From Bacteriovoracaceae bacterium (GTDB lineage: Bacteria; Bdellovibrionota; Bacteriovoracia; Bacteriovoracales; Bacteriovoracaceae), in NCBI GenBank assembly GCA_049599895.1, contig JBMYPC010000049.1:1-20656 (forward strand): 20,656 nucleotides of DNA. Reading direction: 5' to 3'. Shown here in pieces: positions 2,122 to 20,648 of the stretch. The notes beneath the pieces are model-generated. The model ran no database searches. It was not told the origin of the DNA and worked only from the letters and a program-made list of their open reading frames with translations. The translations under genes and the position numbers were made by a program. How positions within the stretch are numbered: position 1 is the stretch's first letter; each line of letters begins with the position of its first letter.

Positions 2122-2126
2122 TCGTT

Positions 2127-3002: not shown

Positions 3003-3034
3003 AGCGATTTCACTACAAGCAAGAGATCAAATTC

Positions 3035-3064
3035 TTTACATAATCTTAGTAAATTTGATAGGTT
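3035..3064 (+). promoter_or_regulatory. Possible sigma70 promoter for aroQ-efp-accBC
   Basis: TTTACA (3035-3040), 18 bp spacer, TAGGTT (3059-3064) with TG at 3056-3057 (extended -10), in a 99-bp intergenic gap. Confidence 0.35.
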
Positions 3065-3101
3065 GTGACGCACAGAGTTTTTATTAGCAAGCACTTTAAT
3101 T

Positions 3102-3554
3102 ATGAAGATAGCGATTTTAAATGGCCCAAATTTAAATCTCCTTGGAAAGCGTGAACCTGAAGTTTACGGGAGCCTTACCCTTGATGAGATTGAAAAACGC
3201 ACTCAAAAGAAAGTTGAATCTCTTCTAGACGGGAAAGAAAAGCTTGATTGTGAGTGGTTTCAAACAAACTCTGAGCAAGAACTCATCGAAAAGATTCACC
3301 AAGTTTTTTTAGATCAAGAAAATTTTAAAGGAATAATTATCAACCCTGGTGCTTTCACTCACTCAAGTGTCGCGATTTATGATGCTCTCAAGATGGTGAA
3401 AATTCCAGTTGTTGAAGCTCATCTTTCAAACACCTATAAAAGGGAAGAAATCCGAAAGAATAAAGTGACAACACCTGCTTCAACTATTTTGATTGAAGGT
3501 GCTGGTCCTTCTGTTTACCTTCAAGGGATTCTGTCGCTGATTTACCAAATTTGA
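3102..3554 (+). CDS. aroQ: Type II 3-dehydroquinate dehydratase
   Basis: LNGPNLNLLGKREPEVYG (catalytic Arg/Tyr loop), IINPGAFTHSS, VEAHLSN...RE motifs. Confidence 0.95.
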   Translation: MKIAILNGPNLNLLGKREPEVYGSLTLDEIEKRTQKKVESLLDGKEKLDCEWFQTNSEQELIEKIHQVFLDQENFKGIIINPGAFTHSSVAIYDALKMVKIPVVEAHLSNTYKREEIRKNKVTTPASTILIEGAGPSVYLQGILSLIYQI

Positions 3555-3590
3555 TAAAGCATAAAATAAAGAACAGATAATGGAGAACTT

Positions 3591-4160
3591 ATGTTGCAAA
3601 CAACCGAGTTGAAAAAAAATACTAAAGTTGAAATGGAAGGAAAGGTCTATGTGATCATTAAAGCAGACTTTACCAACCCAGGTAAAGGTAGTGCTTTTGT
3701 TAAGTGCAAAATGAAGAACCTTGAGAATGGCTCGGTAATTGAAAGAACTTTTAAATCTGGTGTGAGTACAGGTGTTGTCAAACCAGATCTTGAACATAAA
3801 GAAGTTGAGTATATGTATGATGATCCAGATGGGTTTAACTTCATGGATCAAAAAACTTATGAAACGATTCATATCGCAAAAGAGTTAATTGAAGAGGAAG
3901 CCGGATACCTTCAAGAAGGTATTAAGATTAGTCTTCTGTACTGGAAAATGAAGCCTATTTCGATTGAGCTTCCAAACTTTGTTGAGCTAAAAGTTACTCA
4001 AACGGACCCAGGTCTAAAAGGTGATACAGCTCAAGGTGGGACGAAGAAAGCGGTTATGGAAACAGGTCTTCAGGTTAATGTCCCTCTTTTTATAAAAGAA
4101 GGGGAAGTCCTAAAGATTGATACTCGTACCGGCGAGTATAATGAACGAGTCAATAAATAA
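3591..4160 (+). CDS. efp: Elongation factor P
   Basis: NPGKGSAF loop (Lys32), EYMYDD..FNFMD..TYE, PGLKGDTA, ETGLQVNVPLFI..GE..KIDTRTGEY. SD GGAG at 3582-3585. Confidence 0.97.
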   Translation: MLQTTELKKNTKVEMEGKVYVIIKADFTNPGKGSAFVKCKMKNLENGSVIERTFKSGVSTGVVKPDLEHKEVEYMYDDPDGFNFMDQKTYETIHIAKELIEEEAGYLQEGIKISLLYWKMKPISIELPNFVELKVTQTDPGLKGDTAQGGTKKAVMETGLQVNVPLFIKEGEVLKIDTRTGEYNERVNK

Positions 4161-4182
4161 AAAATAATTGAAGGAAAAGAAT

Positions 4183-4626
4183 ATGAAACTTGAAGATCTT
4201 AGAGAGTTTATCAGTCTTGCAAAAGAATCTGGTGTCACAAGACTCGAATACGAATATAAAGACAAAAGATTTGTTGTGAGTTGGGAAAGTGAAAAGGGAA
4301 CCCCTGTTGTTCAACCTCTTCCTGTGAGCGCCCCTGCACCTACCCCTGCTGCAGAAGCAAAGGCAGAAGCTCCTAAAAAAGACAGTGGTCTCATTGAGGT
4401 TCAGTCTCCATTTGTCGGAACGTTTTATCGTTCACCATCTCCCAATGCTGATTCATTTGTTAAAGAAGGTGATCGAATCTCTTCAGGGAAAGTGCTCTGT
4501 ATTATTGAGGCCATGAAGATCATGAATGAAATTGAATCAGAGGTTTCTGGAGAAATTGTTGAAGTTTGTGTTGAAAATGAAACATACGTTGAATTTGGAC
4601 AAACTCTTTTTAAAGTTCGTCCATAG
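4183..4626 (+). CDS. accB: Acetyl-CoA carboxylase biotin carboxyl carrier protein
   Basis: Pro/Ala linker, SPFVGTFYRSPSP, biotinylation motif IEAMKIMNEI, VEFGQTLF. ATG4183 is preferred over TTG4168 because AAGGA (4171-4175) lies 7 nt upstream. Confidence 0.96.
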   Translation: MKLEDLREFISLAKESGVTRLEYEYKDKRFVVSWESEKGTPVVQPLPVSAPAPTPAAEAKAEAPKKDSGLIEVQSPFVGTFYRSPSPNADSFVKEGDRISSGKVLCIIEAMKIMNEIESEVSGEIVEVCVENETYVEFGQTLFKVRP

Positions 4627-4646
4627 AAATAAAAGACAAGTGTCCC

Positions 4647-5999
4647 ATGAGTAAAAAAATCAATAAAATTCTAATCGCAAATCGAGGAGAAATTGCTCTT
4701 CGAATTCTAAGAACCTGTCGTGAGCTTGATATCGCAACTGTTTGTGTACACTCTACTGCCGATGAAAATTCTTTGCATGTGAAGTTTGCAGATGAATCTG
4801 TTTGTATAGGACCTGCAAAATCAACTCAAAGCTACTTAAATATTCCAGCCATTTTATCAGCAGCTGAAATTACTGGCGCTGATGCAATCCATCCAGGCTT
4901 TGGATTTCTTTCTGAGAATACCGAATTTGCGACTATGTGTGAAAAATGGGGAATTAGCTTTATTGGCCCTTACAAAAAATGTATTGAGCTGATGGGAGAT
5001 AAGATTCGATCAAAAGAGCTTGCTAAAGAAGCAGGGGCCCCTGTTTTAGAGCCAATTAAGGTAAATGGTCGAAAAGACGCAGATATTTTAAAAGATGTTG
5101 AATCCATGGGTCTTCCTGTTCTCATTAAGTCTTCAGCCGGAGGTGGTGGAAGAGGGATGAGAAGAATCGATCAAATGAGTGATATTCTTTCAGCAATCGA
5201 AACGTTAAAAACGGAAGCTCTTGCTGGTTTTGGTGATGATACGCTTTTTATTGAAAAGTATATTGTGAATCCAAGACATGTTGAGGTGCAAATTTTAGGT
5301 GATAAACATGGTAATGTTGTTCATCTTGGAGAGCGTGACTGTACGATTCAGAGGCGCTTTCAGAAGTTGATTGAAGAAAGTCCTTGTCCTGTAATTGACC
5401 AAGAAAAACGAAAAGAAATCTGTGAGTCAGCAGTTCGAATTGCAAAGCATGTGAATTATGATAGTGCAGGAACAGTTGAATTTCTTTATGACCTTGATGA
5501 TGGCAAGTTTTATTTCATGGAAATGAATACTCGTATCCAGGTTGAGCACCCGGTTACAGAAGAGAGAACAAATATTGATCTTATTAAGCAAATGATCTTT
5601 TCAGCTGAAGGAAAAGAACTCTCTTTCAAACAAGACGAAATTTTATTTGATGGACACACGATTGAGTGTCGAATCAATGCTGAAGATCCCAAAACTCAAA
5701 GACCGAGCCCTGGAAAAATCTCTTATTATCATAGGCCAGCAGGACTTGGGGTACGAGTCGATGACTTTGTCTATAGTGGGTATAATGTGCCTCCTTTTTA
5801 TGATTCGATGATCTCAAAGGTGATTGTAAAAGCTGAAAGTCGAGATCAGGCTATTGCCAGAATGAAAAGATGCCTTGAAGAGATGGTTGTTGAAGGAATA
5901 AGTACGAATATTCCTATGCATGTTGAGATTTTAGCGGATGCAGACTTCATTTCTAACAAGTATTCTACGAACTATCTCAATGAAAAAAATATGATTTAA
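4647..5999 (+). CDS. accC: Acetyl-CoA carboxylase biotin carboxylase subunit
   Basis: KILIANRGEIA, AIHPGFGFLSEN, GGGGRGMR, ERDCTIQRRFQK, FMEMNTRIQVEHPVTE, ECRINAED, PPFYDSMISK. Confidence 0.97.
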   Translation: MSKKINKILIANRGEIALRILRTCRELDIATVCVHSTADENSLHVKFADESVCIGPAKSTQSYLNIPAILSAAEITGADAIHPGFGFLSENTEFATMCEKWGISFIGPYKKCIELMGDKIRSKELAKEAGAPVLEPIKVNGRKDADILKDVESMGLPVLIKSSAGGGGRGMRRIDQMSDILSAIETLKTEALAGFGDDTLFIEKYIVNPRHVEVQILGDKHGNVVHLGERDCTIQRRFQKLIEESPCPVIDQEKRKEICESAVRIAKHVNYDSAGTVEFLYDLDDGKFYFMEMNTRIQVEHPVTEERTNIDLIKQMIFSAEGKELSFKQDEILFDGHTIECRINAEDPKTQRPSPGKISYYHRPAGLGVRVDDFVYSGYNVPPFYDSMISKVIVKAESRDQAIARMKRCLEEMVVEGISTNIPMHVEILADADFISNKYSTNYLNEKNMI

Positions 6000-6118
6000 T
6001 TTTGCTATTTGTATGGGCCAAAACAAGGCTCAACTTTTGCAGCTTCCAGCAATTTTTTTTGCTTCAAGTTAAAATTAAACGAGTCTAAGTTTTTGAATTT
6101 AAAAAGAAGACGAGTTTA

Positions 6119-7366
6119 ATGGATCATTTTACTAAGATTTATCGCGAAGAAAAAATCGAAGCAACAATCAAAGAAATTCGAGAAATTCTTGAGAGTGATG
6201 AAATTGATTATCAGAACATTTTTTTAAGCCTCAATCTTTTAAAATCAAATAAAGAAAAAGCAGAAGTTATTCAGAGTATTTGGCTGCAAACCGAAGAAAA
6301 TGAAAATATTCAAAACCTTTTCCCAATTCTTGAAAGAACATTAAGTACAGAATTTTCATTTGAGAGTTTATTTCAATTCTTGGATGAAACAAGATTAAGA
6401 GGAGCACTTTCTCTTACCAATAATTGTGCGCGGCTAATTACTGAAAAAATTCTTACAGAGAAAAGAATAAACTTTATTGAGCAAGCAAGACTTTCATTTT
6501 CAAATGGAGGGATTTCAAAAGAAATCTCCACTATGTTTAATCTTGCGAGTGACGTCCTTCAAGGACACTCAATTAATTTCCATGATCTTCAAAAAAAATC
6601 GAATGGTGAAAAAAACTTTTTAAAAGAAAAGTTAAAGCTTCTCGTTAAAAGAAAGTTGAAACATTTTACAAGTATACAAAACGATTCCCTCTTATCTGTG
6701 AAATGGATTCTTCAAAACTTTATTAACCCTGATGACGAAAAAGAGATCCAGTTACAACTTGTTCTTCTCAATGAAATTTTTAAAGAATCAGTCAACCAGG
6801 ATGAACTTGGTTTAGTGTTTCAACTATTGCTTGATTACTCACTTTTATTTAAACAAGCTTGGTCTTATGACGTTATTGTGGAATATTCGAAAATCTTTCC
6901 AGATAAAATTGATCCTGTGAAGCTTATTGAACTTAAGAGTTTGTCGAACAATGCAGAGGAGAAAGCAAGCGAGGAAGAAGTTGGAAATGAAGAACTCTCT
7001 GAGGAAACTTCAACTTTTGTAAAAGATCTTCTGTTAAGAAAACCATCGAGGCAGTACGACTTTCTTGAAGTGAAAGAGAAGATTTTTGTACAAGGCCAAC
7101 ACCACTTCATCTCTCTTTTATCAAAGGAAGAGAGAGAAATTATCTATAAAGAATTCCGGGATAAGATGAATGAGAAGGGGATGGAGGGACCTTCTATTGT
7201 CGAGCTTGCCTATCGCCTCGTTCGTACATTTATAAGTGCTTCTGATTACACGATGGCGCTTGAATTTATGAGTCATTTTGAAAAGAACTTTCCAATGACT
7301 TCAAGAGAATCAGAGATTTTTTCTGACTTACACAAAAGAGTGATGAGACTTTGGGAAAGTACTTAA
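6119..7366 (+). CDS. Hypothetical helical protein; positional candidate for a diverged SgmX/Bd2492-type TPR protein
   Basis: 415-aa ORF rich in L/E/K/I/F with no signal peptide or TM segment, an acidic linker (AEEKASEEEVGNEELSEE) and TPR-like C-terminal helices (IVELAYRLVRTFISASDYTMALEFMSHFEKNFP). Overlaps the next gene by 16 bp. The ORF is secure; the function rests on position only. Confidence 0.6.
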   Translation: MDHFTKIYREEKIEATIKEIREILESDEIDYQNIFLSLNLLKSNKEKAEVIQSIWLQTEENENIQNLFPILERTLSTEFSFESLFQFLDETRLRGALSLTNNCARLITEKILTEKRINFIEQARLSFSNGGISKEISTMFNLASDVLQGHSINFHDLQKKSNGEKNFLKEKLKLLVKRKLKHFTSIQNDSLLSVKWILQNFINPDDEKEIQLQLVLLNEIFKESVNQDELGLVFQLLLDYSLLFKQAWSYDVIVEYSKIFPDKIDPVKLIELKSLSNNAEEKASEEEVGNEELSEETSTFVKDLLLRKPSRQYDFLEVKEKIFVQGQHHFISLLSKEEREIIYKEFRDKMNEKGMEGPSIVELAYRLVRTFISASDYTMALEFMSHFEKNFPMTSRESEIFSDLHKRVMRLWEST

Positions 7367-10300
7367 ATAAATACATCATTTCATTTCTCTTTGTTTTTGC
7401 GATTGCAAGTTATGCAGCACTTGAGTTCTCTCGCTCTAAAGTTGTTGCAAGTTTTATCACGAAAAGAATCAATGGTTATCTTTCAAAACAAAAAAATATT
7501 AAGATTTATTTTGAAAAAATTGATATCCATCCGCTAACCCTTTCAGCAAGTGTTCGAAACGTTTCAATTGAAACAAATGAGTTGAGAGGCTTAACATCAG
7601 ATGTGAATGTTAAGATTAAACTTTTTTCACTTCTTAGAAATAAAATTGCAATAGATCGCATTCACGTTAAAAACGGAGAGTTTTTCATTCATGACTTTTC
7701 TTTTGAAAAAAAAGGAGAAAAAGAGAATGAAAATTATAAAGATTATGGAAGTGAAATAAGAAAAAGTCTTAATCTCATGAAACTTAAGGTTTTCAATTCT
7801 GAGTACAGCGATATCGTAAATGAACTCTATATCGAAAACTCAAGAATCGATTTCAAAGATGAACAATTTTTAATTGATACAATTGAAATAACAAAAAACT
7901 CAAAGTTTGCATCGGCGCGAGTGGCCTTTAACGTTCCGACACAAAAAAAGATTTTTGCTCATGACAAAATTGAGATGGAACTAACTTTAAGCCAGACGAA
8001 GTTTCAAGTAAACTCGTTTAAAATAACGGATGGTTTTTTCTCATTGATGGGTGAAGTCTCTGTTCTTATTGCAAAGGATTTTCAATCTAAGATGGTTGGG
8101 AGTGTCGACTTTAAAATCCCTCTTGATAAAATTTCAGATTTTTACCCCGTTGAAGCAAGGGGATTGGCAAAAGGAGAGATTCATCTCGGGGGAACTTTAG
8201 AAGGCCCTCACATGAGATTGAATCTTGATGCTCGAAATATGGGGAATGAATATATTCGATTTCAAAGGCTCAATTCAAACTTGGCTTTTCGCAATCAAAA
8301 AATTTCAGTAGAGGATATTTACATACAAAATGAAGACGCTTCGGTTAAGCTTCTTAAGCCATTCAATATATTCGACTTAAAAGATTCAAAAATCCTCAAC
8401 TTTAAAGCTCTAACTCAAATTGAAAAATACCATACGAATGATTTACTTTTTTCGATTGATGATATCTTGTCGGGACTTAAGGGGAAAGTTTCTGGAAAGC
8501 TCTTAGTTGATAGTCGAAAGAGTTTTAACAGCACTCGTTTTATAGGCCAAAAGGGAATGAAGCTTAAGGATGTCGAATACTTTCCTGTTGAAGATAAACT
8601 TCTTGGGTTAAAAGAAGTTAACTTAAATCTTTTAAATGTCCATTTAGATTGGCCAAAAGATTCTGTAACAATTGAGTTAAAAGCAAAAAAACAAAACCAG
8701 ATGATTGATGTTAAAGGTGTTGTCGATAACGATAACCTTCGATTTGATGTCTTCTTTAAAAACTTTGACTTTGATCGATTCAAAAATATTTCAACTGTAC
8801 CATTCGGTGGAAACGGAGACCTTGGGATTACTATTTCAGGTCTTGAAAAAACGGTGTTTGATTTTGATATGAAAGCGGAAGAACTTCAAATATTAGGATT
8901 AAGCTTTGGAGAGAGTATAGGAAGAATGATTTTGACTTTAGACGATCTTAACCTCAAAGTTCAAAACATTAAGGCAAAGAAAAATGTTTCTTCCTATGTA
9001 ATTGATGGAAAGGTTAACTTTGAAAAATCAGAAATAGATCTTGATATAAATCATAAGAACAATCGTTTTGAAGACATTATTGAAATCATGGGAGTTCACT
9101 TTCCAAAGGAACTCAACTCTCTTCGAGAAATTAAAATGTATAGTGATGTTCAGTATAATGTTTCTGGAGGGTTTGCTTTTGATAAGCTAAAAATTACAGG
9201 GAAACTTAAATCTGATAAAGCCACTTACTATGGTGAAGAGTTTAAAAAGCCTCAAATGAACTTTTCTCTTAACAATGAAGTCATCTCTCTTAAACGATTT
9301 TCTGTAAATGCCTTCAGTGGCAAAATAAAAGGTGGTTTAGACTACAGTATACCGAGAGAAAATCTCGATTATCGAATGCAACTTTTTCAGGGCCGATTCG
9401 AAGATGTGCGTTTCCTTAAAAAAGGATTCCCGGGAGTCAATTCATCTTTTGAAATTAAAGCTTCTGGTTCATACGGAACAAGTAAACAAAAAGGAGAGGT
9501 TGTCCTCAATCTGAATCGAATGCAAATCGGCAACTCCTTCTTTAATAAAAATCAATTAGATTTTTCTTATAATCATTCGTCGATGATTTGGGGAGTCGAT
9601 TTTCTTGATTCTCAAGTTTTGGGTGCTAGCCAATACATCTTTGGTGGACGAAAAGAAAAAGGAGCAATCCTTGATATTAATTTTGATATCAATAACGGTA
9701 ATGATCTTTTTGCAGCAGTGAAACCAGAGATTATTCAAAATGTCGATCAAATGGACACAATGTTTAAAGGCCATCTTTTACTTGATGTTAATTTTGAGAG
9801 AAAATTAATGAACAAACTTTCTCTTGGGCTTGATGATTTTAAAGTTTTTTATAAAGGGAATCGTCTTGCAGCCTCTAAGAACTCAGGTTTTCTCATTGAA
9901 AAGAATAAAATCTTAAAAAGAAAAATTCAATTCGATACAAATCGTAAATATAAAGCTGAAGCCAGCATTGCTGCGGTTGATGGCCTCGATCTTATTTTGA
10001 AATCAAAATTTCTTTTACCAACAAATCTTGCAGAATTATTTGTTCCCAATGTGGATTATATTAATGGAGAAATTTCAGGAGAAGTTGAAGGAAAAGCAGG
10101 AGAGACTCTTGAGTTCAATTCAGGGATGTTAGAACTTTCTAACGGGGGATTTAAGCCCAAGGATATTCCTGTAAGCGTTGAGAAAATTTCTGGAAGATTG
10201 CGACTCGATAAACAAAGAGTCGAATTTTATGATTTCAAAGGGATCTTAGGAAAAGGAAATCTCGCGGCACATGGGCAGATAGACTTTTCAAATATTATTC

Positions 10301-11364
10301 CTAGTGTTGATATAAAGTATAACGTGCAAAATGCAATCGTTTCACCTTTTGAAAATACAAGGGTTCTATTTAGTTCAGCAGGAAATCTTTTAGGTGATCA
10401 ACCTCCCTATGATTTAAAAGGAAAAATCTTATTGTTTCATGGAACAGTTCACGAAGAGTTCGACAAACTAACATCCCGTGAAGGTGAAAAAAATGTAACA
10501 TCAAAATTTGCACCAGAAAAAAAGTTTCAAGAAGGAATCAGGTTTTTAAATGCTGGCTTTGATGTTGAAATCTTAGAGTCTGTCCATGTGAGAAATAGCA
10601 TTGTCGACATCCATCTTGAAGGTGAATCAAAGATTAAAGGCCCTATGGACTCGATGAACTTTTTAGGAAGTTTTAATATTGATAAAGAAAAAGAAAATAA
10701 AATTCTTGTCAAAGGAAATAGTTTTCTTGTTTCTCGAGGTGCGTTTCAATTAACGGATTCAACCGAAGGGGTTACAATTGATCTTGAGGCTAATTCAAAA
10801 GTGAAGGATTATGACATTCAATTAAATGTCCAGGGAGAAGAAGATGATATTAAAATCACTCTCAAGTCTACTCCAACTTTATCAAAAGAAGATATTTTCT
10901 CACTTCTTACCTTAGGGGTTACTTCTGAGTCTTCCCGTGAGTTAAAGGAAGATCAAAAGAGTTCAATTGCAACAATTGGAATTGGTTCAATCATATTTGA
11001 TCAATTAAAAATTGGCCAAGGACTTAACAATTCTCTCGGCCTAAGGATGTCAATCTCACCTGAACTTCAATCTGACGCTGATTCTACATTACTTGAAGGA
11101 AAATCTGCTGTAGCGAGCTCAAAAAGAGTTAAAACAGCGACAAAAATTAAAATCGAAAAATCCTTTTCAGACAATGTTGACCTATCATTGTCTAATACTG
11201 TGGGAGGGAGTTCACAGCAAAAACAAGAGATGAATTTGATTTATAAAGTTAATGAAAATGTTTCTCTAGACGGTGTTTTAGAGGTAAAAGATGTAGATGA
11301 AGAAAGTTCTTCGGAATCACCTGAATCTGTTGGTTGGGACTTAAAGTACAAATGGTCATTTTAG
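7351..11364 (+). CDS. tamB: TamB/AsmA-like (DUF490) translocation and assembly module inner-membrane protein
   Basis: N-terminal TM anchor (YIISFLFVFAIASYAAL), about 1300 aa of alternating beta-strand pattern, C-terminal DUF490-like segments (VHVRNSIVDIHLEG; LKSTPTLSKEDIFSLLTLG) and terminal strand VGWDLKYKWSF. Adjacent to an Omp85 gene. Confidence 0.85.
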   Translation: MGKYLNKYIISFLFVFAIASYAALEFSRSKVVASFITKRINGYLSKQKNIKIYFEKIDIHPLTLSASVRNVSIETNELRGLTSDVNVKIKLFSLLRNKIAIDRIHVKNGEFFIHDFSFEKKGEKENENYKDYGSEIRKSLNLMKLKVFNSEYSDIVNELYIENSRIDFKDEQFLIDTIEITKNSKFASARVAFNVPTQKKIFAHDKIEMELTLSQTKFQVNSFKITDGFFSLMGEVSVLIAKDFQSKMVGSVDFKIPLDKISDFYPVEARGLAKGEIHLGGTLEGPHMRLNLDARNMGNEYIRFQRLNSNLAFRNQKISVEDIYIQNEDASVKLLKPFNIFDLKDSKILNFKALTQIEKYHTNDLLFSIDDILSGLKGKVSGKLLVDSRKSFNSTRFIGQKGMKLKDVEYFPVEDKLLGLKEVNLNLLNVHLDWPKDSVTIELKAKKQNQMIDVKGVVDNDNLRFDVFFKNFDFDRFKNISTVPFGGNGDLGITISGLEKTVFDFDMKAEELQILGLSFGESIGRMILTLDDLNLKVQNIKAKKNVSSYVIDGKVNFEKSEIDLDINHKNNRFEDIIEIMGVHFPKELNSLREIKMYSDVQYNVSGGFAFDKLKITGKLKSDKATYYGEEFKKPQMNFSLNNEVISLKRFSVNAFSGKIKGGLDYSIPRENLDYRMQLFQGRFEDVRFLKKGFPGVNSSFEIKASGSYGTSKQKGEVVLNLNRMQIGNSFFNKNQLDFSYNHSSMIWGVDFLDSQVLGASQYIFGGRKEKGAILDINFDINNGNDLFAAVKPEIIQNVDQMDTMFKGHLLLDVNFERKLMNKLSLGLDDFKVFYKGNRLAASKNSGFLIEKNKILKRKIQFDTNRKYKAEASIAAVDGLDLILKSKFLLPTNLAELFVPNVDYINGEISGEVEGKAGETLEFNSGMLELSNGGFKPKDIPVSVEKISGRLRLDKQRVEFYDFKGILGKGNLAAHGQIDFSNIIPSVDIKYNVQNAIVSPFENTRVLFSSAGNLLGDQPPYDLKGKILLFHGTVHEEFDKLTSREGEKNVTSKFAPEKKFQEGIRFLNAGFDVEILESVHVRNSIVDIHLEGESKIKGPMDSMNFLGSFNIDKEKENKILVKGNSFLVSRGAFQLTDSTEGVTIDLEANSKVKDYDIQLNVQGEEDDIKITLKSTPTLSKEDIFSLLTLGVTSESSRELKEDQKSSIATIGIGSIIFDQLKIGQGLNNSLGLRMSISPELQSDADSTLLEGKSAVASSKRVKTATKIKIEKSFSDNVDLSLSNTVGGSSQQKQEMNLIYKVNENVSLDGVLEVKDVDEESSSESPESVGWDLKYKWSF

Positions 11365-14174
11365 TGAGATTTCTTATTCTTTGTTTCGTATTGGCCTCCT
11401 CGGTAGAGGTGATGGCCTCTAATAATCGTCTTATTTGTTTACAAGAAGAATTTTGCAATAAAATTAATGAACAGCTTAAACAACAAGAAGAGCCAGATTT
11501 AAAAGAAGTTTTAAAAAGGTTTTCTCATATTAGTAAGGTTTATCAAAACCCTGCCACAGAAGAATTTATTGTCGAAGTGAGTATAAAAGCGACAAAGTTG
11601 AAGTTGTCCATCTCTCCTGATTTCTCTTCTGAGGTAGATGAAAAAATTCGAAAGATATTGAGTTTTGGAAATCAAAAAATCATTGATTCTGAAATGGCGA
11701 GACAAAGAGTTTTAAGTTTAAAAAACTTTCTTTCTAATGAAGGTTATTCAAACTCTAAGATCTTAGCGTATGAACAACGACAAGAGGGGGAACGTGTCCT
11801 TCATGTGGAGGTGAATACTGGTCAGATTCTTAGGTTTGAAGGCTATGAATCTAATATTCAATTTAAAGACCTGAACCTTGAATCATTTGAACAACGCTTT
11901 TCACTGCAAAAGGGGAAAGTCTTTGACAAGTTAAAGTATAGTTTGATGATTCAAGAAATTGAGCGATCCTTGATTAATCAGGGTTATGTTCTTGCTCGAG
12001 TTGAAGATAATCTTGTGGTCTCAGAAGAACTTGTTCGCTCAACGATTACAATAGAGGTTGGCCAAAAAGTTCAATTCAGTGTGAATGGAAATAAACTTAT
12101 TTCTCGAATGGACCTTGTGAGAGAGATCAAAAAGACTCTTCGTTCGACTTTGACTCAAAGAGAAGTGAAGCCTCAAATTGAAAAAGCGATACAGTCCTCT
12201 TATAAGAAAATTGGTTATTATTTTCCACAAATCGAAATATTAAAGTTAAAGGGAAGGTCAAGAAGTTCCCTTGAAGTGAGTCATTATTATATTCAGATTG
12301 AGGAAGGAGATAAGACGCCAATCTTTTCAGTCGATTTTTATGGCACTGAAGACAACAGAGGAAAATCACTAAAAGAAAAATTCTTTAAGATCGAAAGTGA
12401 ATTGATTCAGTCAGGGTTTTATGATCAAAACGCAACTGAGCAGTTTCAAAAAGAAATTATTCTCTACTACCAGGGACAAGGATTTCTCTCTGTAGCTGTT
12501 CAAAAGCCGAGAGTCCTCTTTACTCCAAAAGAAGTAAAAATTGTTTATAACATTGATGAAGGTGAGCAGTACCTTGTTAGTGAGATGGATGTTTGTGATT
12601 GTGATGAAGAGACCGAGAAGTTCGTTCGCTCGATTTTGATAAACAAAGAAGGGAAACCCTTTAATATAAATGTCATCGAATCTGATTTTAAGAAGGCCTT
12701 AAGCTTTCTCAAAGAGAAAGGTTATTTTTATGCTTTTCGAAGCTCGCCTCTTGGAAAAGATGTTGTTCAATATGACCTTCAAAACCGAAAGGCATCGATC
12801 GATTATCTCATCATTTCTGGTGCAAGGTTATCTTATGGGGGTTATGGAATTGCTGGGCTTCAAAAGACTAAAGACTATGTGGTTTCAAGAGAAATATTAC
12901 ATAAAGATGGAGATGTCCTTTCTCCTTCGAGTTTAAGGGACCTTGAGAACCGATTAAATAATCTTGGTCTTTTTCAAGTTGTTAAGGTTAAGCCAGTTAA
13001 GACTAGAGCACAGCTTTTAGGCCAAAAAAAGGCAAATTCTCAAATTCAAATTCAGGTAGAGGAAAGAGATTTTGGAAGTGGTGAAGCTGCTGTTGGTTAT
13101 CGAACTGACCTGGGTGCGAAGGTATCAACATCAATTGTTTATAATAATGTGAGTGGAAAAAACTGGATTGTTTCTGCTGATGCTGAATCCAATTATCGCT
13201 TCAGTCTTTCAAACTTAGATGCAAGAAGAGAAGCTGAAGGGGACAAGTTCATTGAGTACTCCTTGGGAGCAGGTATTACTTTTCCTTATTTCTTTGATCT
13301 TCCCATTAGGACAAACTTCTCTGTTGGTTACAAACTTCAAAGATATTTTGCTTTTGATGCTGAAATTGCTCGATTTACATATTCTAATGATTATCAATTT
13401 CTTAAAAACCTTTTTGGTAGACTCAAATATCAGCTTGAAACAATTAATCAGTCTGATGCAACGGAAGCAAGAGATAACGACAGCTTCCGAATTGGGTCCC
13501 TTACTCCATCTCTAACATTGGATTTGCGTGACAGAGTTGTGAACCCAAGAAGAGGTTCCTTTTTTAATGTCTCTTGGGAGTTTGCTAATCCTTATTTTCT
13601 TTCCCAAAACGACCAAGAAGACCTTGTCATCAATTTCAATAGATTCATCTCAAGAAGTAAGTTCTATCTTCCTGTAACCAACAAGATTACTTGGGCCAAC
13701 TCGATTTCATTTGGAATTGAAACAAACTTTGCAAAAGAAAAGACAAATACAAATGGTGAGACGAGTGCTGAAGGTTACATCCCGAGTATCAAGGTTTTTC
13801 GCTTAGATGGTCAGGACACTATTCGAGGCTATAAAGACAGTGAAATTAATCTTTTAGAGGGTGGACAGGATATTGGCGAAGTCATCATTGATGATGAGGC
13901 CTATTTCCTCGCCTACAAAACTGAGCTTCGCTACAGCTTGAATGACCAGATCGTTTTTGGAGTCTTTTTTGACGCTGGGCAGGTCGCGGTGAACTCTTTT
14001 TCACCTACAAAGGTTCGAACTTCCCTTGGAAATACTTTCAAATTTGTGACGCCTGTTGACTCTCTTGATTTAGACTATGGTGTCAAACTCAAGAGGAGGC
14101 GTACCCAAATATCCGACACTGAGCAGCGCAGGGAAGTATTTGGCCGTTTTCATCTCTCCATCGGCTTTTTCTAA
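11352..14174 (+). CDS. Omp85-family outer-membrane protein (TamA/BamA-like) with multiple POTRA domains
   Basis: Signal peptide (RFLILCFVLASSVEVMA), repeated POTRA motifs (NEGYSNSKI; NQGYVLARV; KIGYYFPQI; GQGFLSVAV; EKGYFYA; GLQKTKDYVVSRE...LNNLGLFQVV), barrel loop-6 IRGY (13821-13832), FFDAGQV, C-terminal FHLSIGFF. The start is likely ATG11352 or GTG11364, both overlapping the tamB end, rather than TTG11334. Confidence 0.9.
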   Translation: MVILVRFLILCFVLASSVEVMASNNRLICLQEEFCNKINEQLKQQEEPDLKEVLKRFSHISKVYQNPATEEFIVEVSIKATKLKLSISPDFSSEVDEKIRKILSFGNQKIIDSEMARQRVLSLKNFLSNEGYSNSKILAYEQRQEGERVLHVEVNTGQILRFEGYESNIQFKDLNLESFEQRFSLQKGKVFDKLKYSLMIQEIERSLINQGYVLARVEDNLVVSEELVRSTITIEVGQKVQFSVNGNKLISRMDLVREIKKTLRSTLTQREVKPQIEKAIQSSYKKIGYYFPQIEILKLKGRSRSSLEVSHYYIQIEEGDKTPIFSVDFYGTEDNRGKSLKEKFFKIESELIQSGFYDQNATEQFQKEIILYYQGQGFLSVAVQKPRVLFTPKEVKIVYNIDEGEQYLVSEMDVCDCDEETEKFVRSILINKEGKPFNINVIESDFKKALSFLKEKGYFYAFRSSPLGKDVVQYDLQNRKASIDYLIISGARLSYGGYGIAGLQKTKDYVVSREILHKDGDVLSPSSLRDLENRLNNLGLFQVVKVKPVKTRAQLLGQKKANSQIQIQVEERDFGSGEAAVGYRTDLGAKVSTSIVYNNVSGKNWIVSADAESNYRFSLSNLDARREAEGDKFIEYSLGAGITFPYFFDLPIRTNFSVGYKLQRYFAFDAEIARFTYSNDYQFLKNLFGRLKYQLETINQSDATEARDNDSFRIGSLTPSLTLDLRDRVVNPRRGSFFNVSWEFANPYFLSQNDQEDLVINFNRFISRSKFYLPVTNKITWANSISFGIETNFAKEKTNTNGETSAEGYIPSIKVFRLDGQDTIRGYKDSEINLLEGGQDIGEVIIDDEAYFLAYKTELRYSLNDQIVFGVFFDAGQVAVNSFSPTKVRTSLGNTFKFVTPVDSLDLDYGVKLKRRRTQISDTEQRREVFGRFHLSIGFF

Positions 14175-14253
14175 CAGAATTTCAGCTAGTTATGCTTTTT
14201 ATTGAATCCTGAAAAATCTTTAAAAATCTCTTTGTTTTATAGGGGTTACCTTA

Positions 14254-14283
14254 TTGACGTAGGGCCAAATAATATCGTATATG
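14254..14283 (+). promoter_or_regulatory. Possible sigma70 promoter of rplM-rpsI
   Basis: TTGACG at 14254-14259 is a good -35. The -10 is imperfect (TATATG at 14278-14283, 18-bp spacer). SD GAAGGA at 14316-14321. Confidence 0.35.
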
Positions 14284-14327
14284 TTGTCATCTAATTTTTT
14301 ATTTCGTTATTGAAAGAAGGATAAATT

Positions 14328-14765
14328 ATGTACACCCAGCGATCGTTCACGCTTAAGCCAGCTGATGCTAATAAGAAGTGGTTACTTATTGATGCCGAAG
14401 GACAAACTGTTGGAAGACTTGCTTCAAAAGTTGCAAATCTTTTAAGAGGAAAACATAATCCACAATTTACAAATCACACTGATTCAGGAGACTTTGTAGT
14501 TGTTGTTAATTCTGAAAAAGTTGAATTCACTGGAAATAAGTGGGAAAGCCAAAAGTATTACAGACACGCTGGTTTTGTTGGAAATCTTAAAGTGAGAACA
14601 GCTAAAGAACAAAGAGAGATCCATCCAGAGCTTATTCTGAAAGAAGCGGTAAAAGGTATGCTTCCAAAGAACAGCTTAGGAAGAAAGCAATTAAAGAAAT
14701 TAAAGATTTATGTTGGTGATAAGCACCCTCATGAAGCTCAAAATCCAGAAACTGTAAGTTTATAG
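14328..14765 (+). CDS. rplM: 50S ribosomal protein L13
   Basis: KWLLIDAEGQTVGRLAS, LRGKHNPQFT, DSGDFVVVVN, AVKGMLPKNSLGR, HPHEAQNP. Confidence 0.98.
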   Translation: MYTQRSFTLKPADANKKWLLIDAEGQTVGRLASKVANLLRGKHNPQFTNHTDSGDFVVVVNSEKVEFTGNKWESQKYYRHAGFVGNLKVRTAKEQREIHPELILKEAVKGMLPKNSLGRKQLKKLKIYVGDKHPHEAQNPETVSL

Positions 14766-14785
14766 GCGAATAAGGAAGAGTAGAA

Positions 14786-15190
14786 ATGGCTGGAAAAAGT
14801 AAAAATTGGGAAGTTCAATCAGTAGGAAGAAGAAAGTCTTCTGTAGCTCGAGTTTATATGTCAAAAGGTGAAGGCAAGATCATCATCAATAAAAGAGAGA
14901 TCTCAGATTACTTTCCAAAAGGGACTGACAGATATGTTGTTAACCAACCGCTTAACCTTTTAAAGGTTTCTGATAAGTATGACATTCTTATCAATGTAAA
15001 AGGTGGAGGAACAACAGGACAAGCAGGTGCTTGCCGTCTTGGTGTTGCTAGAGCAATCATCAATCTTGACCCAACAGTGAGAAAAGAACTTAAAGCTGCT
15101 GGATTCTTAACGAGAGATTCTAGAAAAGTTGAGAGAAAGAAGCCTGGTCTTCGTGGCGCAAGAAGAAAGTTCCAGTTCTCGAAACGTTAA
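14786..15190 (+). CDS. rpsI: 30S ribosomal protein S9
   Basis: GRRKSSVARV, VKGGGTTGQAGA, GFLTRDSRKVERKKPGLRGARRKFQFSKR. SD AAGGA upstream. Confidence 0.98.
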   Translation: MAGKSKNWEVQSVGRRKSSVARVYMSKGEGKIIINKREISDYFPKGTDRYVVNQPLNLLKVSDKYDILINVKGGGTTGQAGACRLGVARAIINLDPTVRKELKAAGFLTRDSRKVERKKPGLRGARRKFQFSKR

Positions 15191-15403: not shown

Positions 15404-18043
15404 ATGAGTCATCGCTACATTGAAATTAAAGGTGCAAGGACCAATAACCTTAAAGATGTGAATGTTAAAATTCCTCTTGGGCAAATTACTTGTATTATGG
15501 GAGCATCTGGTTCAGGAAAGACAAGTCTCGCTCATCAAACCCTTTATGCGGAATCAAAGCGGCGGTTTCTGAATTCTCTTCCCAATAGTTTTCGGTTTTT
15601 CAGTGAGAAACCAGCTCCCTCCGATGTGGATTCGATTTTTCCAATTTTACCAGTTTGGAGTCTGCCGCAAAATAATCCGATTCTAAGTTCAAGACAAAAT
15701 GTTTTAGACTTAATTGAAGGAACTCATTCCGTTCTTGATCTTTTTTCTTCATGTGGAGAAGTTCATTGCCCTACTCATAAAGTTCCTCTTGAAAAAGTTG
15801 GCTTTGGGCCACAAATTTCAAGATTTCTAAAAAAGTGTCCGGCAAAGGCAAAAGCGATTCATGTTTTTGTTTCAAAAGATGCGTATGCAGAGAACTTTGA
15901 AAGCGGCCCTATCCCGACAAGGTCAGTTAAAGCAAAGTCTTCAGAGGTGCAGAGCTTTGATTCGGGGGATAATTATTTTGAACTTTTTCGTGTGAGATCA
16001 ACTCAAGCTGAAAAGATTGAAGAAAAAATTAATGAGCTTGAGCTTAAAAATGTGAAAAGCTATTTATTAAAATTTGATCATGGAAAAAGCTTTTCAGAGC
16101 TTATCGATTCAAAAAGCTACAAGTGTCCTCACTGTGATTATATATCAGAGTCGAGATTTACGCCTCGAAGTCTTTTAACTCCTTTTAATGGTCTTGGGGC
16201 CTGCTCGAGCTGTAAGGGTTATGGAACAATTTATATCTATGATCGAGCAAAAATGATCAAAGAGCCTTGGAAAACGATTCGAGAAGGTGCGGTCACAATT
16301 CTTCAATCAGCTCATTTTGATTATTATGAACCAATCTTTAAAAGTGAAATTCAAAAAATAGGCCTTTCTATTGACGTGCCTTTTAGTGATCTTCCTGAAA
16401 AAAAGTGGAAGTTTCTTTATGAGGGAGGAGGAAAGTTTCCTGGGCTTAATGCTTTTTTTGATTACCTTGAACGGAAACGTTACAAAAAAACAATTCGAAT
16501 TTTTACAAAACGAATCCAAACGGAAGTTCTTTGTCCTGTTTGTGAAGGGGCCAGGATCACCAAAGAAAATCATTCTTATGGTGTGAGAACAACTAAAGAG
16601 AATATTTTTTACAAAGACTCACTTTTATTAACGATTTCAGACGCGATTAAAAAATTTGAAGAGGCTAAAAAGGAGCATAACTTTAAAAATAAACAGTTTT
16701 TAAAGTTTATGAACTCTTTGAAAATTTGTGAAAATCTTGGGCTTGGTTATCTTCAGTTTAATCGAAAAGTTAAAAGTCTTACAGCCAGTGAATATCAAAG
16801 ACTCCTTCTTGTTAAATATTTTAGTTTTCAAGGCACCGGCAGCCTTTTTATTTTAGACGAGCCATCGCTTGGTCTTCGAGTAGAAGAGCAAAAGAAAATT
16901 TACTATTACCTCGAAAGGCTCAAGGCCCTCGGGAATACAGTACTTCTTGTTGATCATTCTGAGTTTCTCCAGTCAAAAGTAGATTATCGGATAGAGATGG
17001 GACCAGGTGCAGGTATTCATGGTGGAGAAATTCTTTACCAAGGAAAAAATAAAGATGCGACAAAGTCTACTCGGGCGAAGAAGCTTTCAAAAAAATCGAT
17101 AAAACCAGCAAAGGCCTTAAAGTTTGAAAAGGTTCACTTTTGGAATAAAACTTGTCCCGATCTTTCTGTTCCTCTGGGAGAGCTGACTCACATTTCAGGT
17201 CCTCCGGGGGTGGGAAAAACTTCTCTTTTTATAAAAACTTTAGCGAATGCCCATGCAAAATTAAACCAAGAAGAAAAGGTTTACGATGGAGATCTTCGCT
17301 ATAAAAAGATTCACAACCTTGAAAAGTTTAAGTCTGTTTATACAATTGATGCCTCGGCTCTTCACTCGAACTCAAGATCAACAGTCGGCACTTATCTTGA
17401 AATTTCTCCGGTGGTTCGAAACTATTATGCGAATCTTTTTCATTCTCAAAAGATGGGGCTTGAGAAAGGTCACTTCTCTCCAAACTCTGCTAAAGGACGT
17501 TGTTCAACTTGCGAAGGGCGAGGGTTTCTTGAAGCTGAGATGAAGTACTTTGAGAGTGTGAGATACACTTGTCCTGATTGTGAAGGACATAAACTTAATC
17601 CTCTTTACGCCAATATTACTGATGGAAAATATAAGTTTAAAGAAATCGTGAAAGTACCCTTGTCTGAAATATGGGATATCATTGTGACCTCGCCAAAGTT
17701 TGTTATTGTAAAAGAGCTTCTTGAAAAATTTCATCTGGATTATCTTAACTTGGGAAGACCTCTTACTTCTCTTTCTGGTGGCGAGAGGCAAAGGCTAAAA
17801 CTTGCAAAGCTCTTTCTTAAAAGTCATAAAGAAAGTCTGTTTGTTATCGAGAATCTCTCGTTTGGTCTTTCAAGCTTAGAACTTCTCTCAATTGGCAATT
17901 ATTTAAGGCAATTAACCGAAATGGACAATACAATCCTCGTGATTGACCCCAACCAAAAAGTCTCTAAATTCTCACATAACTCACTAGAATTAAAGGAGTC
18001 TCAAGGTTCTAAGATAAGGTCAGAGCTCAAAGAAAATAAATAG
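15404..18043 (+). CDS. UvrA-family ABC ATPase paralogue with one degenerate ATPase site
   Basis: IKGARTNNLK, GASGSGKTSLA, TLYAESKRRF, Zn ligands (CPTH/CPHC, CSSC/CPVC, CSTC/CPDC), LDEPS, EMGPGAGIHGG, GPPGVGKTS, LSGGERQRLKLA. Several motifs are degenerate (see findings), so the uvrA symbol is withheld. Confidence 0.9.
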   Translation: MSHRYIEIKGARTNNLKDVNVKIPLGQITCIMGASGSGKTSLAHQTLYAESKRRFLNSLPNSFRFFSEKPAPSDVDSIFPILPVWSLPQNNPILSSRQNVLDLIEGTHSVLDLFSSCGEVHCPTHKVPLEKVGFGPQISRFLKKCPAKAKAIHVFVSKDAYAENFESGPIPTRSVKAKSSEVQSFDSGDNYFELFRVRSTQAEKIEEKINELELKNVKSYLLKFDHGKSFSELIDSKSYKCPHCDYISESRFTPRSLLTPFNGLGACSSCKGYGTIYIYDRAKMIKEPWKTIREGAVTILQSAHFDYYEPIFKSEIQKIGLSIDVPFSDLPEKKWKFLYEGGGKFPGLNAFFDYLERKRYKKTIRIFTKRIQTEVLCPVCEGARITKENHSYGVRTTKENIFYKDSLLLTISDAIKKFEEAKKEHNFKNKQFLKFMNSLKICENLGLGYLQFNRKVKSLTASEYQRLLLVKYFSFQGTGSLFILDEPSLGLRVEEQKKIYYYLERLKALGNTVLLVDHSEFLQSKVDYRIEMGPGAGIHGGEILYQGKNKDATKSTRAKKLSKKSIKPAKALKFEKVHFWNKTCPDLSVPLGELTHISGPPGVGKTSLFIKTLANAHAKLNQEEKVYDGDLRYKKIHNLEKFKSVYTIDASALHSNSRSTVGTYLEISPVVRNYYANLFHSQKMGLEKGHFSPNSAKGRCSTCEGRGFLEAEMKYFESVRYTCPDCEGHKLNPLYANITDGKYKFKEIVKVPLSEIWDIIVTSPKFVIVKELLEKFHLDYLNLGRPLTSLSGGERQRLKLAKLFLKSHKESLFVIENLSFGLSSLELLSIGNYLRQLTEMDNTILVIDPNQKVSKFSHNSLELKESQGSKIRSELKENK

Positions 18044-18084: not shown

Positions 18085-18118
18085 TGATTAAGGAATTGGT
18101 TTTAACTGAGGAATTCTT

Positions 18119-18844
18119 TTGATTAATAAATATTTTGCCCTTATTGGTCTTGTTGTTCTTTGGTCTCATCAGATTTTTGCTGTAAGTTTCATCCCGATAT
18201 CTTTTGATGAGCAAGTGGAGCAATCCGATTCCATTGTTCATGCAGTGGTGAAGGGAAATAGTTATAAAAAGGCTTCGAATGATGAAGTCGTCACAATGAC
18301 TTCACTAAAAATTTTAAGTTACACCGGCATTAGTAATTCAAGAATGGTGAATCCCAATAGCTTTAAAGTTGTGAGCCCTGGTGGGGTCTGGAATGGGATT
18401 GTTCATAAAATCGATGCTTCTCCCAAGTTTAAAGAAGGGGAAGAAGTTGTTCTTTTTTTAAAAGAAACAGGAAGAGGGTTTGTTGTTCTCAATCTTGCTC
18501 TTGGGAAGTACAAAGTTGAAAAATATGACGGAGAAAAAATTCTTAAGAGTGAAATTTTCCCTAAACATCCCTTAATGAAACCTCTTCCTCTCTCTAAGCT
18601 GAAAGAATTGGTTTCGGTTATCAAGCGAGGGGAGACGTTTAAAGGCTTTAACCAAAAACAAGCTGTTGTGAAGAGAAACTTTGAAGAGTCCGGTGAGGGG
18701 CGGGGTCCAGCTTCTCTTGGAAATTCTTCTAAAAATCAAAGTGCATTTGACAATGAAAACGGTCTTACTCTTGTAACGCTCGTTATACTCTTTCTTTTGA
18801 TTGGGATTGTTTATCGATATGCAGTCAGAAACAGCAAAAATTAA
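18119..18844 (+). CDS. Exported, C-terminally membrane-anchored protein with a putative OB-fold (NTR/TIMP-like) domain
   Basis: TTG start with GAGGA SD; signal peptide ending QIFA; domain pattern SFDEQVEQSDSIVHAVV...VVT...VVSPGG...PKFKEGEEVVLFL...LALGKYKV; linker containing RGPAS; TM LTLVTLVILFLLIGIVY plus basic tail. Confidence 0.7.
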   Translation: MINKYFALIGLVVLWSHQIFAVSFIPISFDEQVEQSDSIVHAVVKGNSYKKASNDEVVTMTSLKILSYTGISNSRMVNPNSFKVVSPGGVWNGIVHKIDASPKFKEGEEVVLFLKETGRGFVVLNLALGKYKVEKYDGEKILKSEIFPKHPLMKPLPLSKLKELVSVIKRGETFKGFNQKQAVVKRNFEESGEGRGPASLGNSSKNQSAFDNENGLTLVTLVILFLLIGIVYRYAVRNSKN

Positions 18845-20648
18845 TACTTGTTCAAAGCTATTATTTTTTGTCTTGATTCTTATTTCAAGTCCTGGGCATT
18901 CGTATGTAAAATCATTAACTGGCTCAGGCAAGGCCATCAAGTGGAATGACTCAACAGAAGAAATTCGGTTCTACCTTGATAAAAACTCTGCTCCATCCCA
19001 GATTGGCTCTAATGACTTTGAGAGTATTTTCGTCGGCGCGCTTAATAGCTGGAATGAGTTGGGGAAATTCAACCTTACTTATGAAATTACAAACTCAACG
19101 GCATCAAGACGAAATGATGTTTATTTTTCTGATTTCTTAGTCGGTAGTAATGCCTTAGGTGTTACTCGCGTTTCATTCAATCAGGCCACAGGTCAGATTA
19201 TTGAAACAGATATTATGTTGAGTACTTTTCTTGTGAACAAAGATTCATCCACTGATGAATATCTTGGAAATATTTTAACACATGAAATAGGCCATGCTCT
19301 TGGTCTTTCTCATTCACAAATTGCTTATTCCACTATGTTTTATAAAGCCACTCGAGGACAACACACTCTATCTGAAGATGATAAGAATGGTTTTTATGAT
19401 GTTTATTCAATTAAAAAGTCTGGAACGGGAACAGTAAAAGGCAAAATTGTTGGAGGCCAAGACCTTGTGGGAATTTTTGGTTCTCATGTTCAGCTGATCT
19501 CTGTTGATGATTTGAGTGTTGTGGTTTCAACTGTCTCTGAGCCCAATGGAGATTTCCAGTTTAATAATGTGGATAAGTCGAAAGAATATTTTTTAAAAGT
19601 TGCGCCCTTGGAGCTTCTTGAAACACTTCCGACATATTACGAAGATGTCACCTCCGGCTTTTGTCTTGGCTATACAGATTACAAGCCTTCTCTTTGGCAA
19701 GGTTGTGGAAGTTCAAGTGAAGGAAAGCCTGTTAATATTAATTTTCAAAGTCAAAGCACAATCGATGCTGGCTTTGTCACGATTCGATGTAATACAGATG
19801 TTCCTGCGCAATATCTTCTTGATCGAGAGGATGGTTACGAACTTGATCTCTCTAAAAGGACCAATACTTACTTAGGCTATTTTTCGGAGGTTGATCTTAG
19901 AAATTCTGCAGTTGATAAAATCCACCTTGATCTTTCAAATGTTGCGCTTCCGGCTCTTTCAACCGGAGATCAAAATCTTCTTGAAATCTCAATCATGGCC
20001 CAATCTCTTTATTCGCCTCTTAAGATTAAGTCGAAAGTGATTTTTCAAGATTATACAGAGATTGAATATGGAGCCACGGATTGGATTGATAACGATCTTA
20101 ATCCTCAGACCGATTTAAAGTTTACAATTCTTTTAAGTCCCGTTGCTTCAAGTAATGTTTTTGATATTGAGGTTACTCCCCAGCATTTTGAAACTTTAAA
20201 TTTTAATATCAATGGAAAAAATGAAGTTCTCACAGGTTATTTATCAGGAGTTTCCAATTATTCTCTTGATGATTACTTTCCAGATTATGATGCTTTTAAA
20301 GCAGCTCTTCCCAATTATTTATTCTCTGCACGGGCCTATACTTTGAAGAGTAATGGGGACAAAGTTTATTTAAAGTCACCCTATGTCGCGGAAAATTACG
20401 AGCTTTATGACAATAGATGGTGCCCAGATGCTGATCTAAGCTACAAGCTCAGTCCCAATACAGTTTCAACGACGAGCAGTATCATTACCACGACGACATC
20501 TAACGAAGATAGTGGAGAAATTGCTCTTGGCGGATGTGGTCAAATAAATACCGGCTCAGGTCCAGGAAACCCTGGTTCAGCTCCATTAATTGCTATGATG
20601 ATGGGAATTCTTCTTTTCTTATTGCCTAGAATTCAATATCTTAAATAG
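18819..20648 (+). CDS. Secreted matrixin (M10-like metzincin) metalloprotease with a prealbumin/carboxypeptidase-regulatory-like domain and C-terminal sorting signal
   Basis: HEIGHALGLSH (19281-19313), Met-turn STMF (Met at 19335), upstream ALGVT and IIETDIML, downstream LSEDDKNG; next domain GTVKGKI...GSHVQL...NGDFQF; Ser/Thr linker, GGCG, hydrophobic stretch and basic end. The start is likely ATG18819, overlapping the upstream gene by 26 bp. Confidence 0.9.
   Translation: MQSETAKINTCSKLLFFVLILISSPGHSYVKSLTGSGKAIKWNDSTEEIRFYLDKNSAPSQIGSNDFESIFVGALNSWNELGKFNLTYEITNSTASRRNDVYFSDFLVGSNALGVTRVSFNQATGQIIETDIMLSTFLVNKDSSTDEYLGNILTHEIGHALGLSHSQIAYSTMFYKATRGQHTLSEDDKNGFYDVYSIKKSGTGTVKGKIVGGQDLVGIFGSHVQLISVDDLSVVVSTVSEPNGDFQFNNVDKSKEYFLKVAPLELLETLPTYYEDVTSGFCLGYTDYKPSLWQGCGSSSEGKPVNINFQSQSTIDAGFVTIRCNTDVPAQYLLDREDGYELDLSKRTNTYLGYFSEVDLRNSAVDKIHLDLSNVALPALSTGDQNLLEISIMAQSLYSPLKIKSKVIFQDYTEIEYGATDWIDNDLNPQTDLKFTILLSPVASSNVFDIEVTPQHFETLNFNINGKNEVLTGYLSGVSNYSLDDYFPDYDAFKAALPNYLFSARAYTLKSNGDKVYLKSPYVAENYELYDNRWCPDADLSYKLSPNTVSTTSSIITTTTSNEDSGEIALGGCGQINTGSGPGNPGSAPLIAMMMGILLFLLPRIQYLK

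Follow-up and report, generated by a model that had tools for sequence, protein, structure and literature searches.

A predicted TIMP-fold partner without disulfides, encoded beside a propeptide-less matrixin in a Bacteriovoracaceae bacterium

Two overlapping genes for exported proteins

The 20,656 nucleotides (nt) of DNA analysed here, referred to as the window, come from a Bacteriovoracaceae bacterium (assembly GCA_049599895.1, contig JBMYPC010000049.1), likely a predator, whose genome is 97% complete at 3.27 Mb in 266 contigs. At the 3' end of the window lie two overlapping + strand open reading frames, one of 241 amino acids (aa; 18119-18844) and one of 615 aa (18801-20648), which share 44 nt, or 26 nt if the second starts at an ATG at 18819. 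A reading made from the letters alone (the sequence-only reading) had taken them for two exported genes, a TIMP-like protein followed by a matrixin protease, and both the positions and the export features were confirmed. We call the upstream product the partner.

The partner gene has a TTG start, with a Shine-Dalgarno-like GAGGA (18108-18112) 6 nt upstream, and encodes a signal-like N-terminal segment, a predicted NTR/TIMP-fold domain, a linker and a C-terminal hydrophobic helix with a basic tail. Signal cleavage sites in both proteins were placed by eye and by the A-x-A pattern. The predicted signal peptide (18119-18181, residues 1-21) ends in I-F-A, a site backed by conservation of the -1 residue, and leaves a predicted mature N-terminus of V-S-F-I-P (18182-18196) where the family consensus is T-T-F-x-P, in the register of TIMP residues 1-5. 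The disulfide-free OB-fold domain spans residues 22-171 (18182-18631), as judged from the structural model, structural comparison and a lead from the Atlas. It is followed by an R-G-P-A-S motif (18701-18715) within a linker modelled at low confidence (residues 177-216), and then by a predicted transmembrane helix and basic tail (18761-18841, residues 215-241; helix 215-240 in the model), which the hydropathy survey also picks out.

The second gene (609 aa from the ATG at 18819, the start in the Atlas record) encodes a matrixin, an M10-like metzincin that matches PF00413 at 38 bits against a cut-off of 24 and has an MMP-type catalytic fold. Its catalytic domain (18903-19415) begins at Tyr35, directly after the predicted signal peptide, according to alignment and a homologue model. 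The zinc motif HEIGHALGLSH (residues 161-171) and Met-turn (M179), together at 19281-19337, occupy columns that are invariant in 19/19 aligned orthologues. Beyond it lies a likely CarboxypepD_reg-like beta-sandwich (19431-19790), for which the signal is weak (PF13620, E 0.083; an Atlas feature score of 0.83, a lead only), and the protein closes with a tail (20529-20645) of G-G-C-G (Cys579), Gly/Pro linker, hydrophobic helix and basic end.

The absence of a propeptide is general among such proteases. We compared 89 partner-adjacent proteases, of which 10 could not be aligned at the conserved Trp and were dropped. A signal-type site lies 11-15 residues ahead of this Trp in 76 of the remaining 79 (at 13 residues in 67), and the first mature residue is Y, F or H in 69/76. 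Only one of the 76 segments between signal site and Trp contains a Cys; an Asp occurs anywhere in 27/76, by eye at no fixed position. As judged from their sequences, the paired matrixins have neither a propeptide nor a cysteine or aspartate switch, and on the first and second of these points the sequence-only reading was right. Because the catalytic domain begins right after the signal site, signal peptidase alone would yield the activated form.

A predicted NTR/TIMP-like fold

No Pfam or NCBIfam profile matches the partner, and Cys is absent both from its sequence and from 135/135 homologue domains. Comparison of its model with known structures predicts an NTR OB fold that covers almost all of the N-TIMP domain, with model residue 22 falling on chain residue 1 of both TIMP-3 and TIMP-1; the fold proposed from the letters is thus borne out by structure prediction and structural comparison. 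None of 24 partner-family rows matched PF00965 at E<=0.1, and the Atlas holds one cluster with 30% PF00965 (score 0.90, again a lead only).

Linkage of partner and matrixin

A profile of the partner has matches in 97 of the phylum's 201 genomes, including 40/42 in the window's own family, nearly always in single copy, while whole families of the phylum have no match. Among 1.84 billion cluster representatives (50% identity) it finds 10,852 matches at E<=0.001. The nearest Atlas clusters come mostly from Bdellovibrionota, and the closest named record belongs to an uncultured Bacteriovoracaceae bacterium. We examined 116 partner loci, among them those of all but six of the 97 matching genomes. 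The partner lies directly before an HExxHxxGxxH gene in 88, in frame with one in two, and one gene away in one, so that the predicted adjacency is conserved. No protease is nearby in 24, five of which can be put down to contig ends or to a protease at another site. From the other side, the partner is present in 65/65 genomes in which the protease is matched at E<=1e-33. Since kin are not independent, these locus counts show a pattern and not significance. The window's genome holds five PF00413 genes and a single partner gene, adjacent to one of them, a pairing far above chance; the other four matrixins are partnerless.

Single-chain fusions, which the sequence-only reading had mentioned, are real: a 418-aa example (G094) has about 110 full-length relatives, with the zinc motif kept in 106/107 aligned rows and an Arg two residues before the first residue of the catalytic domain in 104/107. 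The idea of a split prodomain acting in trans is in so far upheld that it fits these fusions. Elsewhere (G108, L081:1528-4158) partner and protease share one 877-aa frame with an internal membrane helix and a second signal peptide, which is either a fusion under way or the result of a lost stop codon or assembly error. Two Myxococcota loci (L038:3899-6266 and L041:2478-6486) each have one anchorless partner and two adjacent matrixins with MYXO-CTERM-like tails.

The sequence-only reading had also offered a role specific to a predator. Against this, the pair occurs in records of Myxococcota, Acidobacteriota and Planctomycetota, is missing from whole families of the phylum, and, in the survey of phylum loci, has repeatedly lost the protease while the partner stayed. 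One genome without a protease orthologue (G012) carries two partner genes that have diverged from each other, both in new positions (L010, L023).

A conserved partner N-terminus

Across the 88 paired copies, the residue before the predicted cleavage site is A, G or S in 86, a small residue fills position 1 in 86 (Thr in 70), position 2 is Thr or Ser in 69 (Ser23 in the window's copy), and position 3 is hydrophobic in 84, with Cys at none of them; 135 further homologues agree with this pattern. The full signature is found in 67/88 paired copies versus 8/164 crudely predicted exported proteins of the window's genome. The register between signal site and fold is thus fixed, and small-Thr/Ser-hydrophobic is conserved at positions 1-3.

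Within the own family this signature is kept in 28/42 paired versus 0/9 orphan copies. The orphans fall in about five lineages; their tree needs 6 changes, counting one outgroup orphan, of which no more than 2 are forced by starred branches. Among the alignment columns, decay in the orphans is greatest at positions 1 and 3, in the loop that follows strand C and at the N-L motif behind strand E, and core residues are retained. The decaying loops appear to correspond to the disulfide-linked loops of TIMPs.

The fused homologue and the catalytic cleft

A model of the fused homologue built on 107 rows has a predicted local distance difference test score of 92 and a predicted template modelling score of 0.88. 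It contains a beta-bridge at residues 2-3 that is absent from the model of the lone partner. Residue 124, the equivalent of the window protease's Tyr35, is Tyr or Phe in 87/107 rows, and on superposition aligns with the first mature residue of karilysin (35), MMP-8 (79), MMP-3 (83) and MMP-2 (1); alignments to mature chains begin at residue 124 or later. Superposition of this catalytic domain on zymogens brings the first five residues of the fused model into the alignment. Residue 2 falls on prokarilysin 24, residue 1 on profragilysin-3 190, residue 4 on Bacteroides fragilis metalloproteinase II 186 and residue 5 on ADAM17 zymogen 174, positions that we take to adjoin the switch residues of these four. 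Residue 2 also falls on residue 29 of pro-astacin LAST, the propeptide of which (residues 22-48) crosses the cleft according to passages of its description (PMC9629494). The fused homologue's N-terminus is therefore predicted to lie near the cleft, although such models can copy solved TIMP-MMP complexes.

The confident two-domain model would also suit a folding chaperone or export escort, that is, a prodomain in trans that the protease needs for folding or export, with inhibition transient and secondary. The protease is essentially never without its partner (the 65/65 genomes above), and the domain is always upstream or N-terminal, like prodomains. Four other propeptide-poor matrixins of the same genome manage without such a neighbour, however, and neither the fixed register between signal site and fold nor the many orphans would be explained, so that we hold this role to be unlikely, though less so than the others weighed below.

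Predicted membrane anchors and a sorting-like tail

In the own family, 42/52 partner copies pass a crude threshold for a C-terminal membrane helix, as do most related families. The anchor is absent in families f3 and f11 (0/14 loci) and in 8/9 named records; the tether is therefore a lineage variant. The linker motif R-x-[PI]-A-[SQN] is found in 43/52 own-family loci versus 1/61 others, and in the window's copy (R-G-P-A-S) it is a possible shedding or modification site. In open reading frames genome-wide, R-x-P-A-S was seen 27 times versus 5.4 expected, possibly as a processing or modification motif peculiar to the lineage.

A tether through a disordered linker with a conserved motif, together with the persistence of orphans, is what one would expect if the partner were instead a substrate, cut off its anchor by the protease (e.g. 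near R-x-P-A-S) to free an active NTR domain. There is a precedent in Listeria, where, in passages of the published account, a metzincin (Mtz) cleaves and releases its TIMP-like lipoprotein partner, Tim (PMC8235301), and this precedent also tells against an inhibitor. The families and records just mentioned have no anchor to cut, and the motif is both confined to the partner linkers of one family and enriched genome-wide; a shed effector thus seems to us improbable, slightly more so than a chaperone.

The protease tail resembles, in sequence, the Cys-containing sorting signals known as MYXO-CTERM. A Cys occupies the same C-terminal region in 45/54 complete neighbour proteases, and the succession of Cys-Gly, Gly/Pro linker, helix and basic tail is found in only two proteins of the genome, both matrixins. 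The second is a 287-aa stand-alone matrixin (L024:1342-2202, C25) with Gly-Gly-Cys-Gly, linker and membrane helix. TIGR03901 matched none of 10 tails tried, a search of low power in that a Myxococcaceae tail among them was also unmatched. No stand-alone myxosortase was found in the genome as assembled (97% complete), where the sole PF02517 (Rce1-like, CPBP) match is an ABC-2 permease fusion (L137:1-1938, C7). Parts of one study describe MYXO-CTERM in Myxococcus as cleaved and sent to the surface (PMC11980579), and the passages of bioRxiv 10.1101/2023.06.07.544157 on sorting tails make no mention of Bdellovibrionota.

A putative amino-terminus switch

Taken together, sequence conservation and predicted structures lead us to think that the partner is probably a disulfide-free, TIMP-like latency factor, which would plug the cleft of a propeptide-less matrixin with its own N-terminus. 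Both proteins would be exported through Sec and then held in the inner membrane by their C-terminal helices. The protease, born in its mature form, would therefore need an inhibitor in trans. The partner N-terminus made by signal peptidase would enter the zinc cleft, where residue 1 would coordinate the zinc with its free amine and carbonyl and residue 2 would occupy S1', with Phe3 and the C-D and E-F loops standing in for the TIMP disulfides. Latency would end once the protease parts from its membrane-tethered partner, by clipping of either anchor or by export; in fused relatives the domain would act as a cis prodomain, with the conserved Arg as the likely cut site. The likeliest substrates are cell-envelope proteins. 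Of the three roles first proposed, inhibitor, chaperone and presenter, that of inhibitor seems the best supported, and it and the four alternatives weighed here are not mutually exclusive.

The sequence-only reading had cautioned that, without the Cys1 of TIMPs, inhibition would have to be non-canonical. The Cys is indeed absent. The consequence need not follow: the zinc ligands of TIMPs are the alpha-amino and carbonyl groups of residue 1 and not its thiol, as passages of several accounts state (PMC3003256, PMC3679795, PMC9890683), so the canonical geometry might be open to an N-terminus without Cys.

Several observations weigh against an inhibitor of this kind. Changing Cys1 to Ser severely weakens TIMPs (PMC3003256), the partner has no equivalents of Cys1-Cys70 or Cys3-Cys99, and AceES-2, which is also an NTR protein and has a flush N-terminus without C-x-C, does not inhibit MMPs (PMC3679795). 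The overlap with zymogens involves only the first and last aligned residues, and those of a homologue; three other zymogen chains (8k5v, 1eak and 5gwd) exclude the N-terminus, their alignments starting at 79-109. Position 2 is Thr in only 41/107 fusions, the window's copy departs from the family in having Val1 for Thr and Ala100 for Gly, and the decaying columns of the orphans were chosen after the fact. A Foldseek search with the partner model gave no match at E<=0.001. Most NTR-fold matches (agrin, PCOLCE, complement) are not known to be inhibitors. Two such modules, agrin NtA and the PCOLCE NTR domain, match the model within 2 Z units of TIMP-3, which would suit an activator or adaptor that binds an exosite or substrate and presents substrate to the protease at the membrane, where both proteins are anchored in this lineage. 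One of the 116 loci (G028, L035:2837-4331) places the partner before a matrixin homologue without a zinc motif (PF00413, E 1.7e-4), likely a pseudo-protease with its partner retained, and this too would be easier to reconcile with an adaptor. Such a function would leave unexplained why residue 1 is small and flush with the signal site, why positions 1-3 decay after protease loss in the own family, and why the N-terminus overlaps zymogens; we give it little credence, marginally less than the shed effector.

The remaining difficulties concern distribution. Nineteen partner copies persist in 18 genomes without a close protease orthologue (best E 5e-18 or weaker), four of them without any A3 match, so the partner is of some use by itself. 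Orphans of other families retain the signature (11/13 vs 39/46 paired copies), and do so over 6-8 changes in their tree. Two additional protease copies lack an adjacent partner, and in one genome (G020) a degenerate partner stands beside an intact protease. The orphans, kept as a single copy at a conserved site and duplicated in one genome, would fit a general defensive or unrelated envelope role, in which the partner either blocks metzincins of foreign origin, or other endogenous ones, or has an envelope role of its own, and its linkage to the matrixin is regulatory or historical. Linkage in at least four phyla, despite very different protease C-terminal parts, and the roughly 110 fusions speak against this, and we regard it as very improbable, the most so of the four.

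If the latency factor is real, its wider meaning is a matter on which we are doubtful: the family may possibly be a bacterial, disulfide-free TIMP inhibitory domain, in which case MMP-TIMP pairing would predate animals, and matrixin latency would be imposed by an 'amino-terminus switch' in place of a cysteine or aspartate switch, set as a cis prodomain, as a trans gene or, here, as an inner-membrane tether with activation by moving away. Bacterial matrixins are common, and a TIMP-fold partner would answer how propeptide-less ones are restrained. Were it to alternate between a prodomain in the same chain and a gene of its own, it would also tie prodomains and inhibitors together, and suggest an origin, open to testing, for both the NTR/TIMP module and the MMP-TIMP pair. 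A TIMP scaffold that has no disulfides and comes straight from signal peptidase should also be easy to express and study.

Neighbouring genes

Directly upstream of the partner (window 15404-18043) is a gene for an atypical 879-aa ATPase of UvrA-like type, which scores 413 bits where the TIGR00630 cut-off is 730; in many relatives a UvrA-like gene or rplM-rpsI precedes the partner. The run at 334-15190 we take, by eye, to be largely housekeeping: a PilQ-type secretin, type II dehydroquinase, EF-P, AccB, AccC, TamB-like and Omp85-family proteins, and ribosomal proteins L13 and S9. A TPR protein lies within it. Some relatives (L032:4563-6501, L033, L034 and L036) have genes for an exported AMIN-like protein and for a Lon-like protease (the latter named by eye) downstream of the pair, and in loci that have lost the matrixin both genes move up to the partner.

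Comparison with known systems

Literature searches, which mostly did not extend to subscription papers, found none on the partner family, and no partner matches were found in phage or plasmid records. Co-encoded bacterial metzincin inhibitors and a bacterial TIMP-like partner are already published (potempins, AprI and Listeria Tim), and our surprise is accordingly limited. In its proposed mode of action the pair would resemble TIMP-MMP, potempin A-karilysin and AprI-serralysin. With the animal TIMP N-domain (MEROPS I35, PF00965; 3cki_B, 1uea_B) the partner shares the NTR OB fold, the register of residue 1, Ser/Thr at position 2 and a target with an MMP-like catalytic domain (MMPs being M10A). 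It differs in having no cysteines, C-x-C or C-TIMP domain, in its 9-11% identity and lack of a PF00965 match, in its C-terminal membrane anchor, and in being co-encoded or fused with a single propeptide-less protease. Listeria Mtz-Tim, in passages of its description (PMC8235301), is likewise a conserved pair of adjacent genes for a bacterial metzincin and a membrane-bound TIMP-like protein, a likeness drawn from published description and not from sequence comparison. Tim, in contrast, is a downstream-encoded lipoprotein with its TIMP-like part beginning about 50 residues in, its fold was called by Phyre2 only, and its locus is phage-derived (PMC8235301, in part).

Potempin A (PotA) of Tannerella forsythia, the inhibitor of karilysin, is described in parts of PMC9890683 as a 98-residue lipoprotein that inhibits through loops, in a bilobal manner, and is otherwise unrelated to TIMPs; karilysin, unlike the window's protease, keeps an aspartate-switch propeptide. 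The partner has no lipobox Cys, in which it differs from potempins, and PotA is not among the 50 structural matches listed for it, a list that does not exclude likeness. In the serralysin/AprI (Inh) operons, the N-terminus of AprI binds zinc without a Cys1, a likeness to the mode proposed for the partner; serralysins, unlike the window's protease, have a propeptide and RTX repeats. AprI is a co-encoded periplasmic inhibitor that engages a metzincin in a TIMP-like way with a structure that is not TIMP-like, according to passages of PMC8235301. Among the closest on the protease side are the myxosortase-dependent metalloproteases MXAN_2677/MXAN_2678 (NF041905). The window's protease reaches 50.2 bits against that family's cut-off of 250, and NCBIfam has no model of the partner; the two sides nevertheless share a related catalytic domain (E 1.7e-13) as well as a tail of Cys, helix and basic end, and are linked by a Myxococcaceae locus in which the partner precedes two such proteases.
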